Origin: an uncultured Alphaproteobacteria bacterium
GTDB taxonomy: Bacteria > Pseudomonadota > Alphaproteobacteria > Rs-D84
DNA: 64,000 bases
NCBI GenBank assembly: GCA_944389525.1
Contig: CALXMR010000001.1
Location: 228,658 to 292,657, forward strand
Reading direction: 5' to 3'
Position 1 is the first letter of the stretch; every line of letters begins with the position of its first letter. Made by a program: the position numbers and the translations under genes. Of this stretch, positions 11,886 through 15,428 are shown in pieces. Below the pieces are notes generated by a model. It was not told the DNA's origin. It ran no database searches and saw only the letters and a program-made list of their open reading frames with translations.

Positions 11886-12181
11886 TTTTATGCAAAACAC
11901 TTGGCTTTTAATAAAAAATGTTAATTTTGTAGAAACTTTTGTACAAATCGAACAAGAACAATAACAAGAGAAAGAGATATGAGCAATACTGCAATCTTTC
12001 AAACCGGCGGCAAGCAATATCGCGTGAAAACTGGCGATTTTGTAAAGGTTGAACGCCTGGATGCCGATGGTACGGTCGAATTCGACCAGGTTTTAATGCT
12101 GGACGATAAAATTGGCACCCCATTTGTTGATGGTGCCCGTGTTGTGGCCCAGGTCGTGGAACAAAAACGCGGTGACAAGGT
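11886..12181 (+). repeat. 296-bp direct repeat, copy 1 (rplU promoter/leader plus the first 203 nt of rplU)
   Basis: Read by eye as 100% identical to 15133-15428. The sequence diverges abruptly after ggtgacaaggt. Confidence 0.9.
11979..12181 (+). pseudogene. rplU: Truncated 5' copy of rplU (L21), about 68 codons, fused to unrelated sequence
   Basis: Identical to the 5' end of rplU at 15226. The downstream reading frame (up to 12419) codes for unrelated residues and crosses a terminator hairpin. Confidence 0.8.
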
Positions 12182-12224
12182 AATGCATGTGTACAGTCGA
12201 CCGGGTCAGGTTCAGGTGAATAAT

Positions 12225-12251
12225 AAAACGCCCCGTTGGGGCGTTTTATTT
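12225..12251 (+). terminator. Rho-independent terminator
   Basis: aaaacgccccgttggggcgttttattt. Confidence 0.65.
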
Positions 12252-12423
12252 GTTGCGTGTCATTTATATACTTGCCCCGTTGTCCCGTGTCTGTTTTCCA
12301 GTTGTCAGACCTCGGGACGGCCAAAAATAAAAACATATGGTAACAAGATAGGTATGAAACATACCGTCTGTATTAAGTTTTTCTTTTCTGTTTCGTTTCG
12401 TTGTGATATAATTACTTAAAGTT

Positions 12424-15084
12424 ATGAAACATTTGCCGTTATCTTTTTTCTTGATTGCGTTTGTGGTGCCATCTGCCTTCGCGGATGGTGTGTCCATATC
12501 GCGTGCAATTCCGGCCAGTAATTCGGTCGCCACATCTGGTGCCAGCACCCGGGATACTGGTGCAAGTTCTGTGCGCCAGGGGGCGTCGCGTACAACAATT
12601 GCTGCGCCGGTCCAGAAATTGACCGCCACATCACAGAACGGTGGTACTGCACGTAGTGTAGCCAGTCGAACCGCCACAACATCAGATACAAATTCTGGGG
12701 TTGTGCGTGTTGGTTCGCGTGTTTTAGATTTGGGTGGGGATGCGTCACAGTCCGTGCGTGGTACTACAACGATACGCGCTGGGGGCAGTGTATCGCGTGC
12801 AGCGGGTGCGACGCATGCGAACACGGCGCGTGATAACTTGGATGCGACGGTAAATACTGTCGGTCGCAATGCCCGGGTTCAGGCGGCCAGTATAAACAAT
12901 AACCCGGCGGTGCGTCGTGCGGGGTTAACCTTGCGTCCATCCACGGCCGAGGTTGGCGGTCGTGCCACGATTGCGGGTACAGATATACAAACAGGTTCTA
13001 ATATTTCTAGCGAGGCTCGAACCGTTTCCGCACGTGCAACGACTAATGCAGATACGATAACCACAGAATCAATCGCCGCGGCCAAGGAACGGATGGATCT
13101 GGCGGCGGATTTGAATTCTTCGTGCCAGCAACAGTATAATGATTGTATGGACCAGTTTTGTTCAGTTATTGATTCCAATCAAAAACGGTGTTCTTGTTCT
13201 GCCAATTTGGACAACTACACTGATGTAGAACAGGCGGTTACCAACGCAAATAACCAGTTAAACGAGGTGGCCCAGCGGATTCGTTATGTCGGCCTGACCG
13301 AAGAAGAAATAGAAGCAATCATGTCCGCGACCGAGGCTGAAGATGCATTGTCTGGGACAAGCGATACAACAGAAACACGAAATTTATTGGCGGAAATCGA
13401 AGAGTTAATACGCGATCCAGCCAGCAGTACTTCGTCATATGCATCGAATTCATCGTCCTTGTTTGGGCTGGATATGGATATAGATTTTACATCAAATTCA
13501 GCGGATTTGTTTAGTTTGGACTTTTTGAACACTGGTGGATCCAGTTTGTCAAATATGCGCGGTCGCCAATTGTATAACGCCGCCAAAAATCGTTGTAAAA
13601 CCATATTGGACCAGTGTGAAGATGCGGGCGCAAATATTGACCAAATTACAGCGAATTACGATTTGGCAATTGATCGGGATTGTATCGCGTATGAACAGGG
13701 GTTGCGTAAAATGAACGAAACATTGGTGTCCAATGTGCGCAGTGCGAACCTGATGTTGCAACAGGCGCGTCTGGCGGTGATGCAGAATCAGAATTTATAT
13801 GACGCCAAGGAATGTGTCGCGGCACTGGATGAATGTATGCGCGATGATATGGTGTGTGGTGACGATTATACAAAATGTTTGGACCCAACGAAAAAGTACA
13901 TCGATGAAAATGGTGATGTTGTTCTGGGCCAGGATATAACCCAAATAATAAAATTTATGGAAAACTATAATAACGCCAGTATAAAAAAGCCACTGTTACA
14001 AGAGGCATACAGTATGCCTATTACGGACGAGAAGTGTGCGACAGAAACTGCAGGTGATAATGCCCCCCTGGTTGGAAATAATGGTGCATGCATTGCAGGA
14101 TATTTATTAAAGAAAATTGGTACCCAGCAGGAGATCACGGACGAAGGCATGTGTCGCGCCGTTTTGGACAAGTGCCAGGCATATACATATGATGATACGG
14201 GTAACTATCTGCCATATAATGACATTGTTGTGAATTATATCCAACGTGCAATGGTGAATATCCAGGCGGCCCAACGGCAAATTATATCTGATTATGCGTC
14301 GACATGTGTGTTGGATATTGCAAACTGCTATAACCAACAGGTGACCCAGGTCAACACATGGTCTTCTGGCGCCAGCGTTAACAGTGTTTATAATGTGATG
14401 CGCGGTGCATGCCGAAATGTGGCACTGACATGTGCGTATGCCGTGTTCAAGGATGATAATACCAGTTGTCCAAAAGGAGATAGGAATGATGACGATGAAT
14501 GTCTGGACAGCATTTCCGAAATGTTCTATCAGTCATTATTGTGTCCAGATAATTCGTCGTATCAATCAGAGTCTGGAACACCAGGAGAAAAAAATTATGT
14601 AAATTCCAGATGTAAGTGTAATTCTGGGTATTCTGTGTATAATGGCCAGTGTGTATTCTGTCCAGGAACAGGCATGACAATTAACGCGCTGGGGCAATGC
14701 GTATGTGATACTGCAAATGGCTTTACAGAAAGTGAAGGCAACTGTATATGCCCCAGCACACATGTTATTGATGATAACGTATGTCGAAAAAAAGTGTGCA
14801 CAGATGCAACGACATCCGCGGAGTGTGCTTCATTAGACTCATGTGTTTGGGGCGATTTTCGCTGTAAGTTCAACGGATCCCCCCCCATTGGGGGATGTAG
14901 TGCCCTGGACTCGGAGGAAAACTGTAAAAACTGGAGTAGGTGTAACTGGAATGGAACCACATGTGTTATTGTTGGCCATGTGGAGCTTGGTAATTGTTCC
15001 GATTATACTACGTCAGACCAGTGTGAAGCAAACGACCTTTGTTACTGGGATGATAATACAAAAAAGTGTTTAACAAATAATTGA
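12424..15084 (+). CDS. Large secreted cysteine-rich protein, paralog 2, with C-terminal EGF-like Cys repeats
   Basis: 886 aa. Signal peptide MKHLPLSFFLIAFVVPSAFA, an S/T/R/A-rich disordered region, CQQQYNDCMDQFCSVIDSNQKRCSCSA (homologous to the paralog-1 motif), and about 60 Cys. The C-terminus carries repeated C.C....C..C units (CKCNSGYSVYNGQCVFCPG..CVCD..CICP). Confidence 0.8.
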   Translation: MKHLPLSFFLIAFVVPSAFADGVSISRAIPASNSVATSGASTRDTGASSVRQGASRTTIAAPVQKLTATSQNGGTARSVASRTATTSDTNSGVVRVGSRVLDLGGDASQSVRGTTTIRAGGSVSRAAGATHANTARDNLDATVNTVGRNARVQAASINNNPAVRRAGLTLRPSTAEVGGRATIAGTDIQTGSNISSEARTVSARATTNADTITTESIAAAKERMDLAADLNSSCQQQYNDCMDQFCSVIDSNQKRCSCSANLDNYTDVEQAVTNANNQLNEVAQRIRYVGLTEEEIEAIMSATEAEDALSGTSDTTETRNLLAEIEELIRDPASSTSSYASNSSSLFGLDMDIDFTSNSADLFSLDFLNTGGSSLSNMRGRQLYNAAKNRCKTILDQCEDAGANIDQITANYDLAIDRDCIAYEQGLRKMNETLVSNVRSANLMLQQARLAVMQNQNLYDAKECVAALDECMRDDMVCGDDYTKCLDPTKKYIDENGDVVLGQDITQIIKFMENYNNASIKKPLLQEAYSMPITDEKCATETAGDNAPLVGNNGACIAGYLLKKIGTQQEITDEGMCRAVLDKCQAYTYDDTGNYLPYNDIVVNYIQRAMVNIQAAQRQIISDYASTCVLDIANCYNQQVTQVNTWSSGASVNSVYNVMRGACRNVALTCAYAVFKDDNTSCPKGDRNDDDECLDSISEMFYQSLLCPDNSSYQSESGTPGEKNYVNSRCKCNSGYSVYNGQCVFCPGTGMTINALGQCVCDTANGFTESEGNCICPSTHVIDDNVCRKKVCTDATTSAECASLDSCVWGDFRCKFNGSPPIGGCSALDSEENCKNWSRCNWNGTTCVIVGHVELGNCSDYTTSDQCEANDLCYWDDNTKKCLTNN

Positions 15085-15132
15085 ACAAATCTGATTTTAT
15101 GTTCAGCATAATAAACGCCAATCTGTCGAAGA

Positions 15133-15428
15133 TTTTATGCAAAACACTTGGCTTTTAATAAAAAATGTTAATTTTGTAGAAACTTTTGTACAAATCGAAC
15201 AAGAACAATAACAAGAGAAAGAGATATGAGCAATACTGCAATCTTTCAAACCGGCGGCAAGCAATATCGCGTGAAAACTGGCGATTTTGTAAAGGTTGAA
15301 CGCCTGGATGCCGATGGTACGGTCGAATTCGACCAGGTTTTAATGCTGGACGATAAAATTGGCACCCCATTTGTTGATGGTGCCCGTGTTGTGGCCCAGG
15401 TCGTGGAACAAAAACGCGGTGACAAGGT
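15133..15428 (+). repeat. 296-bp direct repeat, copy 2 (functional rplU promoter and 5' end)
   Basis: Identical to 11886-12181. Confidence 0.9.

Follow-up and report, generated by a model that had tools for sequence, protein, structure and literature searches.

The 64-kb stretch analyzed here (positions 228,658 to 292,657 of contig CALXMR010000001.1, assembly GCA_944389525.1, from an uncultured alphaproteobacterium; hereafter the window) carries two identical direct repeats comprising the promoter and 5′ end of rplU, the gene for ribosomal protein L21, and between them a gene, P2, for a secreted cysteine-rich (Cys-rich) protein. We interpret this A–B–A arrangement as the scar left when, in this lineage, recombination inserted a diverged surface-protein gene and duplicated the target, the two copies of which were afterwards homogenized; we put the probability of this reading at about 0.7. 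The host is a reduced-genome gut bacterium resembling Candidatus Enterousia: a scan of species-representative genomes for L21 gave 80 related loci, the closest of which (91–92% L21 identity) belong to Candidatus Enterousia and to metagenome-assembled genomes (MAGs) of gut Alphaproteobacteria, and genomes of Enterousia (order Rs-D84) are below 1 Mb (PMC12306168). Coordinates given without a label are those of the window, whereas L followed by a number designates a related contig or locus with which the window was compared.

The repeat pair and the empty site of the sister lineage

Base-by-base comparison of the two copies gave 0 mismatches over 296 bp at an offset of 3247, an identity far beyond chance, and a repeat finder returned the same pair as the only long repeat in the 64-kb window. 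The start codons lie at 11979 and 15226, and the common coding part of 203 bases (67 codons plus 2 nt) specifies 68 identical residues; Ribosomal_L21p (Pfam) was matched in the open reading frames (ORFs) of both copies. Homology continues for about 24 nt to the left of the repeat (11862–11885 and 15109–15132), where it is diverged, giving a total repeated length of about 320 bp including this edge; compared with the sister-type allele, about 5–6 of some 30 nt differ in the left extension. The first-pass annotation of this DNA had described identical repeats holding the leader, the ribosome-binding site (RBS) and 68 codons of rplU, of which the first is a truncated pseudo-rplU followed by a terminator and the second belongs to an intact rplU–rpmA operon. 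The self-comparison, the Pfam matches and the folding of a −24.8 kcal/mol hairpin between copy 1 and P2 bear out this description.

The ancestral state is visible in a sister lineage (L105), which is about 95% identical to the window at the nucleotide level in P1 (the resident Cys-rich gene to the left, 95% by itself), rplU–rpmA, P3–n275, and the genes downstream. Its gene order is P1, rplU, rpmA, a 530-aa (amino acid) gene on the minus strand, P3, n275, P2′, a 445-aa gene (Q), and RNase T, with one rplU. The alignment of the window with L105 is unbroken from P1 to exactly 12181 and resumes at 15113 through rpmA, and the region of copy 2 is 97.4% identical to L105 4161–4894. Relative to this empty site the window thus has an additional 2951 bp (12182–15132) and a second copy of the rplU 5′ region, and both P2′ and its neighbor, the 445-aa gene, are absent from the old position. 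L097, which is from the same species as the window (98.5% in P3–n275), keeps P2′ after n275 although its rplU is already preceded by the 3′ end of P2. Both copies must thus once have been present in one genome, and the loss of P2′ came afterwards.

Comparison of the locus across relatives, which the first-pass annotation had proposed, found a single rplU copy in about 30 species and in the sister lineage, and no second L21 fragment in any of the 80 related loci or in the sister loci. These ~30 species keep the order VIT1(−), PPDK, PagL(−), P1, rplU, rpmA, P2, RNase T(−), UvrD, and a deeper clade has P3–n275 between P1 and rplU. Orthologs of P2 lie downstream of rpmA in the same ~30 species, and only the species of the window has P2 inside rplU. 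P1 and P2 share 27% identity over 325 aa; since each has its own orthologs across the genus, they are old paralogs and not products of the event that formed the repeats. The view that this is not an ancient tandem duplication of Cys-rich genes was accordingly confirmed: only ~320 bp are repeated, and the whole unit is not present twice.

The insertion is common to at least 12 independent assemblies, and the supporting contigs were produced in three or more studies with more than a single assembler. The path from P1 through copy 1 into P2 was found in 9 samples, and that from P2 through copy 2 into the rest of rplU in 12. The event is older than the diversification of the strains.

The inserted fragment and its junctions

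The insert consists of P2 (2661 nt), a 42-nt gene remnant, a terminator, and 172 nt of P2 upstream region, and no integrase, recombinase, or transposase was found in the 2951 bp among the ORFs or with Pfam and NCBIfam. What sets P2 apart from its surroundings is its divergence. Against P2′ of L105 the synonymous divergence (dS) is 0.90 and the nonsynonymous divergence (dN) 0.116 (dN/dS ~0.13), whereas dS for the other genes is 0.04 (rplU), 0.07 (rpmA), 0.10 (P3), 0.17 (P1), 0.20 (RNase T), and 0.37 (UvrD). The closest homolog of P2 is P2′, at 81% amino acid identity; the contexts of the next-closest homologs were uninformative, one (P0012/L111) ending in repeats before any rplU and the other (P0007/L112) showing the ordinary order P1–rplU–rpmA–P2–RNase T. 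The low dN/dS argues for a long separate evolution of P2 and P2′ under purifying selection, not for fast change after a recent copy. Upstream of P2, positions 12358–12419 are 80.6% identical to L105 9934–9994 (blastn), and for the first ~105 nt of the upstream region (12252–12357) neither blastn nor tblastx gave a homolog.

A similar step in divergence marks the right junction, which falls in a conserved promoter block: over the 24–30 nt preceding copy 2 the divergence from the resident allele is about 17%, and over the next 296 nt 0–1%. This diverged stretch holds half of a dyad motif (described below) that in the window is limited to rplU promoters.

The left junction can be read in four other assemblies of 98–99% identity to the window (L090, L091, L094, and L098), which have 262 extra bp where copy 1 meets the insert. 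In the L090 type, codon 69 of rplU is fused in frame to a 99-aa Cys-rich tail, making an ORF of 168 aa, with the stop of the tail just before the terminator. The best homologs of the tail are C-terminal modules inside the P1 ORFs of orthologs in L011, L012, L020, and L039 (38–48%, tblastn), and the L090 tail matches window positions 12176–12220 at 100% (tblastn). No tail-like module is present in the resident P1, in the sister P1, or in anything else at the sister locus. The heptamer ACAAGGT occurs twice in L090 (2687–2693 and 2949–2955), with 262 bp between, and once in the window; the right edge of copy 1 at 12181 is the product of a later 262-bp deletion between these 7-bp repeats and not the original junction. 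This deletion shifts the frame, which accounts for the 146-aa ORF of the window. As other strains have the 168-aa in-frame version, the part downstream of the L21 N-terminus is not conserved as a protein. Both “L21” ORFs are pseudogenes. The 168-aa ORF (L090 2491–2997, and likewise in L091, L094, and L098) stands behind a ribosomal-protein promoter and RBS; the fusion is probably a by-product, though it is a ready-made chimeric gene.

These comparisons show the following history. The ancestor had P1–rplU–rpmA–…–P2 with a single rplU, and rplU then received, after codon 69–70, a fragment whose source was a more diverged relative; the joint is still visible in L090. The fragment contained a P1-type 3′ module, a terminator, P2 with its own upstream region, and ~24–30 nt of rplU-type upstream region; given this succession, the order P1–P2–rplU belongs to the donor and not to the resident lineage. 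Afterwards the old P2′ was lost in most strains, and the ACAAGGT deletion set the right edge of copy 1.

As to mechanism, the right end of the fragment would have been anchored by homology in the conserved rplU promoter block, and the left end attached by illegitimate joining. With this second joint on the downstream side of the anchor, the recipient segment would be duplicated instead of replaced, and only a product duplicating ~300–330 bp of the resident rplU 5′ end would have persisted, because an interrupted rplU–rpmA is presumably strongly deleterious. Two routes could yield it: homology-facilitated illegitimate recombination (HFIR) acting unequally between sister chromatids, or single-crossover integration of a circularized fragment.

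A purely intragenomic history is unlikely but deserves consideration. Here rplU–rpmA–…–P2 would have been duplicated, in tandem or dispersed, followed by reciprocal deletions that removed the rest of rplU–rpmA from the first copy and P2′ from the second, with P2 and P2′ as old or fast-evolving copies within one genome. The P2 remnant upstream and P2′ downstream of rplU in L097 are what a two-copy intermediate would look like, deletions do occur here (262 bp in the window, 31 nt in L097), and surface-protein genes are gained and lost at this locus as at a hot spot. However, the sequence following copy 1 is a P1-type 3′ module missing from every other gene of the locus; the dS of 0.90 at a dN/dS of ~0.13 speaks of long separation; and the ~17% divergence left of copy 2 directly adjoins 296 identical nt. 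At least three events are needed, which is less parsimonious than an insertion.

It also seems improbable that the repeats make P2 a cassette that is excised or amplified through RecA-mediated crossover, with copy-number heterogeneity of the surface protein as the outcome; the repeat would in that event have a functional role beyond that of a scar. Direct repeats of ~296 bp are good recombination substrates, and k-mer coverage of the loop contig (repeat plus P2) exceeds that of its flanks: 9.74 versus 5.08 and 5.15 for the left and right flanking contigs in BRZ_ME (~1.9×; L007, L101, and L109), and 6.83 versus 4.25 in BRZ_MG (~1.6×; L006 and L102). Contig L007 moreover closes on itself (3324 = 3247 + 77). 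Any de Bruijn assembler, however, outputs a self-closing contig for an unresolved A–B–A loop, and the coverage values, taken from contig names and only 4–10×, may be low-depth noise. Among the 22 contigs read, none of this species joins P1 directly to full rplU, the form that the chromosome would take after excision (P1, repeat, rest of rplU), and the 3.2-kb unit of repeat and P2 has no replication gene. For these two reasons we also set aside a 3.2-kb plasmid or circle as the true state.

Identity of the copies and the rplU promoter

A sigma-70 consensus scan found no promoter inside the repeat. Such consensus scanning also missed obvious terminators, absorbing the T-run into the stem, and terminators were therefore verified by folding instead. 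Alignment of related upstream regions revealed a conserved CTTGACTTTT box with TGn-TAYTTT 16 nt downstream. The first-pass annotation had called the extra promoter a strong ribosomal-protein promoter, yet in the window both copies have the derived TTGGCT and a 15-nt spacer, shorter by 1 nt; all 52 of 52 related upstream regions have TTGACT or TTGACA, and TTGGCT occurs only in this species.

This promoter region tells the two copies apart in other strains. It should be noted that a short-read assembly represents the inner part of a 296-bp repeat by a single graph node, which both copies share, so that only sites within k (the k-mer length) of an edge are phased. Three phased variable sites lie 19–38 nt from the left edge: S1, the fourth base of the −35 box (TTGACT/TTGGCT); S2, one A of the spacer; and S3, T or C. 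The sister L105 and copy 1 of L096 have A A T, copy 1 of L095 has A – T, and copy 1 of L090, L094, L099, and the window has G – T; copy 2 is A A C in seven assemblies and G – T in the window type. The sister and the outgroups have A at S1. In the other strains the copies thus differ by 3 changes in ~297 nt (~1%), similar to the 1–1.5% found between strains. In the window the border of the identical tract is sharp, with 0 differences between the copies in 296 nt versus 4 in the 13 nt immediately to the left.

On the simplest reading, the G and the 1-nt deletion would have arisen in the dead copy, and conversion over 20 nt or more, bounded on the left at 15133, would then have moved both changes into the functional promoter of the window strain. 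Because the copies differ in other strains and the functional copy of the window has the derived alleles of the dead one, the perfect identity most likely reflects gene conversion (concerted evolution) and not recency, as far as three phased sites indicate. Two further sites common to both copies in L099 (S4 and S5) were considered as proof of conversion and set aside: they lie more than k from either repeat edge, where assembly from short reads is bound to make the two copies alike.

The first-pass annotation had seen in the identity a recent insertion or segmental duplication, or else gene conversion. A lineage-specific insertion with duplication stands, and gene conversion best explains the identity; the event itself is not very recent. 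That the identity follows simply from a very recent duplication, with no gene conversion, has little in its favor beyond the 0 differences in 296 bp in the window and at least 6 other assemblies, and we consider it quite improbable. Strains 1–1.5% apart share the same insertion, there was time enough for its junction to be remodeled by the 262-bp deletion, and in seven assemblies the copies do differ at three sites, the kind of substitution that the first-pass annotation had named as speaking against recency. Finally, the derived copy-1 alleles are found in copy 2 only in window-type strains.

Copy 1 itself appears to be a nonfunctional remnant, whose transcripts would stop at 12251. It is very unlikely that the extra rplU promoter was captured and kept because it drives or boosts P2. 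Copy 1 does hold the whole conserved promoter region and reads toward P2, and in L096 it still has the ancestral TTGACT and spacer; but the −24.8 kcal/mol hairpin and T-run intervene, P2 keeps an upstream region of its own that is conserved with that of the sister P2′, and the changes expected to weaken the promoter (TTGGCT and the spacer shorter by 1 nt) would have arisen in copy 1. Within the P2 upstream region an extended −10-like TGATATAAT is situated 12 nt 5′ of the P2 ATG, with no Shine–Dalgarno sequence (12404–12424), which suggests that the P2 leader is very short or absent.

On the other side of P2 no hairpin was found between its stop codon and copy 2 (fold z −0.18), and with no terminator after P2 co-transcription of rplU–rpmA with P2 is possible. 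Such read-in may explain why a weakened rplU promoter is tolerated, and likewise a deletion in L097: the functional rplU promoter of L097 (941–1000, corresponding to window 15140–15168) has lost 31 nt that include its −35 box and spacer. Ahead of rplU, L097 has a gene that is a chimera of an unrelated N-terminal part and the last 124 aa of P2, on a single scaffold for which a chimeric assembly is possible.

The rplU core promoter is bracketed by a 22-nt dyad-symmetric motif, TTTGTnGAAAnTTTTnTnCAAA, present twice 51 nt apart (11875–11896 and 11926–11947; 15122–15143 and 15173–15194). The window has 7 matches where 0.37 are expected, and among 54 related upstream regions 28 have both sites and 17 have one. 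The motif may be an operator; it has no Rfam family match. An Rfam scan of 11500–16400 at E ≤ 1 gave sub-threshold matches on terminator hairpins only and no known rplU leader.

Taken one step further, the 296-bp repeats could be an active substrate, on which P2 copy number varies by tandem amplification or loop-out, as the ~1.9× coverage in BRZ_ME hints, and mutations of the dead rplU′ are pasted into the rplU–rpmA promoter. We advance this as a tentative and, at present, doubtful proposal. If true, a pseudogene fragment steers the evolution of a ribosomal-protein promoter, which could be tolerated because P2 reads into rplU without a terminator; in L097 even the −35 region is deleted.

Several points weigh against insertion of a foreign fragment followed by conversion. 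No donor was found: nothing is closer to P2 than the sister's P2′, and a search among 5.8 billion proteins for the 99-aa tail matched only the fusion ORF itself. The foreign origin of the insert is read from levels of divergence only, and it would take the donor sequence to define the microhomology at the original joint between rplU and the tail. The direction of conversion, and even the need for it, hangs on three linked sites; both copies may first have been G – T, with copy 2 later overwritten elsewhere, which reverses the direction and still needs ectopic recombination. The identity is independently verified within ~30–77 nt of each edge only, its interior not being verifiable from short-read assemblies.

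That the structure is an artefact of assembly, whether by collapse or duplication of a repeat or by formation of a chimeric contig, is hardly credible even though many contigs break at the repeat edges and the interior cannot be phased with short reads. Both copies are spanned by 7 contigs, which stem from different samples; four strain types have single-nucleotide differences, lying no further than k from the unique flanks, that tell the copies apart, and their order in the assemblies is the same; and the alternative path is absent from the assemblies of this species. L103, L008, L100, L002, and L004 have contig or unitig ends that fall exactly 30–77 nt into the repeat, as expected of a true repeat, and breaks or loops are to be expected at this locus in further contigs of the species.

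Neighboring features and comparison with known systems

The features of the locus are collected in table 1.

Table 1. Features of the rplU locus in the window, with the observations on which each assignment is based.
Feature	Positions	Strand	Basis
P1, gene for a 745-aa secreted Cys-rich protein; resident left neighbor of rplU in all relatives	9556–11793	+	ORF; orthologs directly upstream of rplU in ~30 species
Intrinsic terminator of P1	11793–11819	+	Hairpin −25.5 kcal/mol, z −6.7
Diverged left continuation of the repeat homology at copy 1; holds the first half of dyad motif 1	11862–11885	+	Copy and strain alignments; motif match 11875–11896
Repeat copy 1: rplU promoter region, leader, RBS, codons 1–68	11886–12181	+	Identity; blocks conserved across 54 related upstream regions
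Copy 1, −35-like TTGGCT	11901–11906
Copy 1, TGn-TAATTT	11919–11927
Copy 1, dyad motif 2	11926–11947
Copy 1, RBS	about 11966–11976
146-aa ORF: 68-aa L21 N-terminus, then out-of-frame read-through; pseudogene remnant	11979–12419	+	ORF list, Pfam
ACAAGGT heptamer, scar of the 262-bp deletion	12175–12181	+	Two in L090, one in the window
Last 14 codons and stop of the Cys-rich tail, with which a P1-type gene ended; not in frame with rplU′ here	12182–12223	+	tblastn
Intrinsic terminator that arrived with the tail; separates copy 1 from P2	12222–12251	+	Hairpin −24.8 kcal/mol, z −5.5, then T-run
P2 upstream region; last ~62 nt conserved with the sister P2′ upstream region; TGATATAAT at 12404–12412	12252–12423	+	blastn
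P2, gene for an 886-aa secreted Cys-rich protein; cargo of the insertion, diverged allele of a family normally downstream of rpmA	12424–15084	+	dS versus sister P2′
P2–rplU spacer without terminator; right ~24 nt (15109–15132) a diverged homolog of the rplU upstream region, probably of donor origin	15085–15132	+	Fold z −0.18; alignment; motif 15122–15143 with 2 mismatches
Repeat copy 2: promoter region, leader, 5′ end of functional rplU	15133–15428	+	Identity; continuous with remaining rplU
Intact rplU (L21, 99 aa)	15226–15525	+	Pfam PF00829, full length
rpmA (L27, 88 aa)	15553–15819	+	Pfam PF01016
Terminator 3′ of rpmA	15818–15844	+	Hairpin −17.8 kcal/mol, z −3.6
Empty ancestral site, 51 nt in the window; the sister and L097 carry P2′ here, between n275 and RNase T	19157–19207	.	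L105 gene order; blast of window and L097 versus L105

P1, P2, and P3 (9556–11793, 12424–15084, and 16350–18350) belong to a large family of secreted Cys-rich proteins, each with a signal peptide, an S/T/A/R-rich region, a CxxxYxxCMDxxC motif, and Cys-rich C-terminal modules, the number of which varies among species. P2 has more than 1000 homologs at E ≤ 1e-20; for P1, P2, P3, and n275, sequence searches of Pfam, NCBIfam, and PDB gave nothing significant. The sister's 530-aa gene between rpmA and P3 (L105 4896–6488, minus strand) encodes a repeat protein with a weak PARCEL-repeat match, and the 445-aa gene after P2′ (L105 12444–13781) a Cys-containing secreted protein. The window has neither of them, which marks the locus as a hot spot of surface-protein gene turnover.

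Other repeats occur nearby. Small palindromic intergenic repeats of the form TTGTCATTGCGAGCC...GGCAATCCAG...TTGTCGCnnCGCGAC, resembling repetitive extragenic palindromes or miniature inverted-repeat transposable elements, are found at 4987–5042, 8727–8767, 16026–16097, and 42512–42567, and also at the end of L111; one of them lies between rpmA and P3, where the sister has a different gene. The terminator after PPDK and the next ~50 nt (8557–8631) are 87% identical to those after rpmA (15813–15887). Between rpmA and P3 a 31-nt repeat occurs at 15932–15962 and 16073–16103, a spacing of 141 nt, and L091 and L093 appear to have one extra unit of ~141 bp there. In a different species, a contig from a Hadza-gut MAG (L066 10001–10229) stops inside rplU at residue 76, near the position of the junction described here, which could be chance or a similar repeat.

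The locus is a well-resolved natural example of a change in gene order around an indispensable operon, in which an insertion into rplU survived because the 5′ end of the gene was duplicated. Its stages are preserved in metagenomes: the empty site of the sister, a strain with both P2 copies, the in-frame fusion of L21 to a Cys-rich tail, and the secondary deletion. It indicates that an uncultured symbiont lineage whose genome is below 1 Mb undergoes homologous and illegitimate recombination as well as gene conversion, and that mutations can pass from the remnant of a dead gene to a promoter still in use.

Each of these processes has known counterparts. Genomic islands integrate into the end of a gene (tRNA, tmRNA) and carry a replacement end; here too the target is kept intact by a duplicate of the interrupted gene end bordering the insert. 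Unlike such islands, the insert has no integrase, the 300-bp repeat is not a short att core, the 5′ and not the 3′ end is duplicated, and the cargo family is syntenic in all relatives; nor was the same element seen at the same target in unrelated genomes. Campbell-type single-crossover integration of a circular molecule, such as a suicide plasmid, yields A–insert–A, where A is the shared homology, and leaves, as here, one truncated and one complete copy of the target gene. In contrast to that model there is no sign of a circular intermediate or vector, and the route would make copy 1 partly donor-type, needing later homogenization. Concerted evolution by gene conversion is familiar from tufA/tufB in Salmonella and from the pseudogene-templated transfer from pilS to pilE, with which the present case shares derived variants common to paralogous copies, a sharp boundary between tract and flank, and a silent copy donating to an expressed one. 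It differs in that the tract is a promoter and gene 5′ end, one partner is a dead fragment, and there is no sign of programming or selection.

Closer to the proposed insertion itself is the HFIR-type displacement of gene cassettes, which leaves gene remnants, for example in the effector–immunity arrays of the Vibrio cholerae type VI secretion system and in Rhs loci (PMC5361080 and references 41, 42, and 47 therein). In both cases, on the history proposed for rplU, one homologous anchor in a conserved region is combined with one illegitimate joint, a diverged allele of a variable surface or competition gene arrives, and truncated remnants are left. In classical HFIR the recipient DNA between the joints is replaced or deleted, whereas here the recipient segment, lying upstream of the illegitimate joint, was duplicated.

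The duplication finds its parallel in Streptococcus pneumoniae, where transformation that brings a lethal cassette into an essential gene gives merodiploids in which one copy stays intact (Johnston et al. 2013, PMC3784515). There as here, the gene that is hit is indispensable, and the insertion is found only where a duplication has preserved a working copy; direct repeats are present in the product, and unequal integration of a donor fragment between chromatids, the route proposed there, is one of the two proposed here. The pneumococcal duplications are 100–900 kb long with borders in repeats derived from insertion sequences, and are experimental and unstable, unlike the duplication at rplU, which is ~0.3 kb, fixed in a natural lineage, and of inferred mechanism. 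The rplU locus is a new instance of known processes and not a new kind of system.

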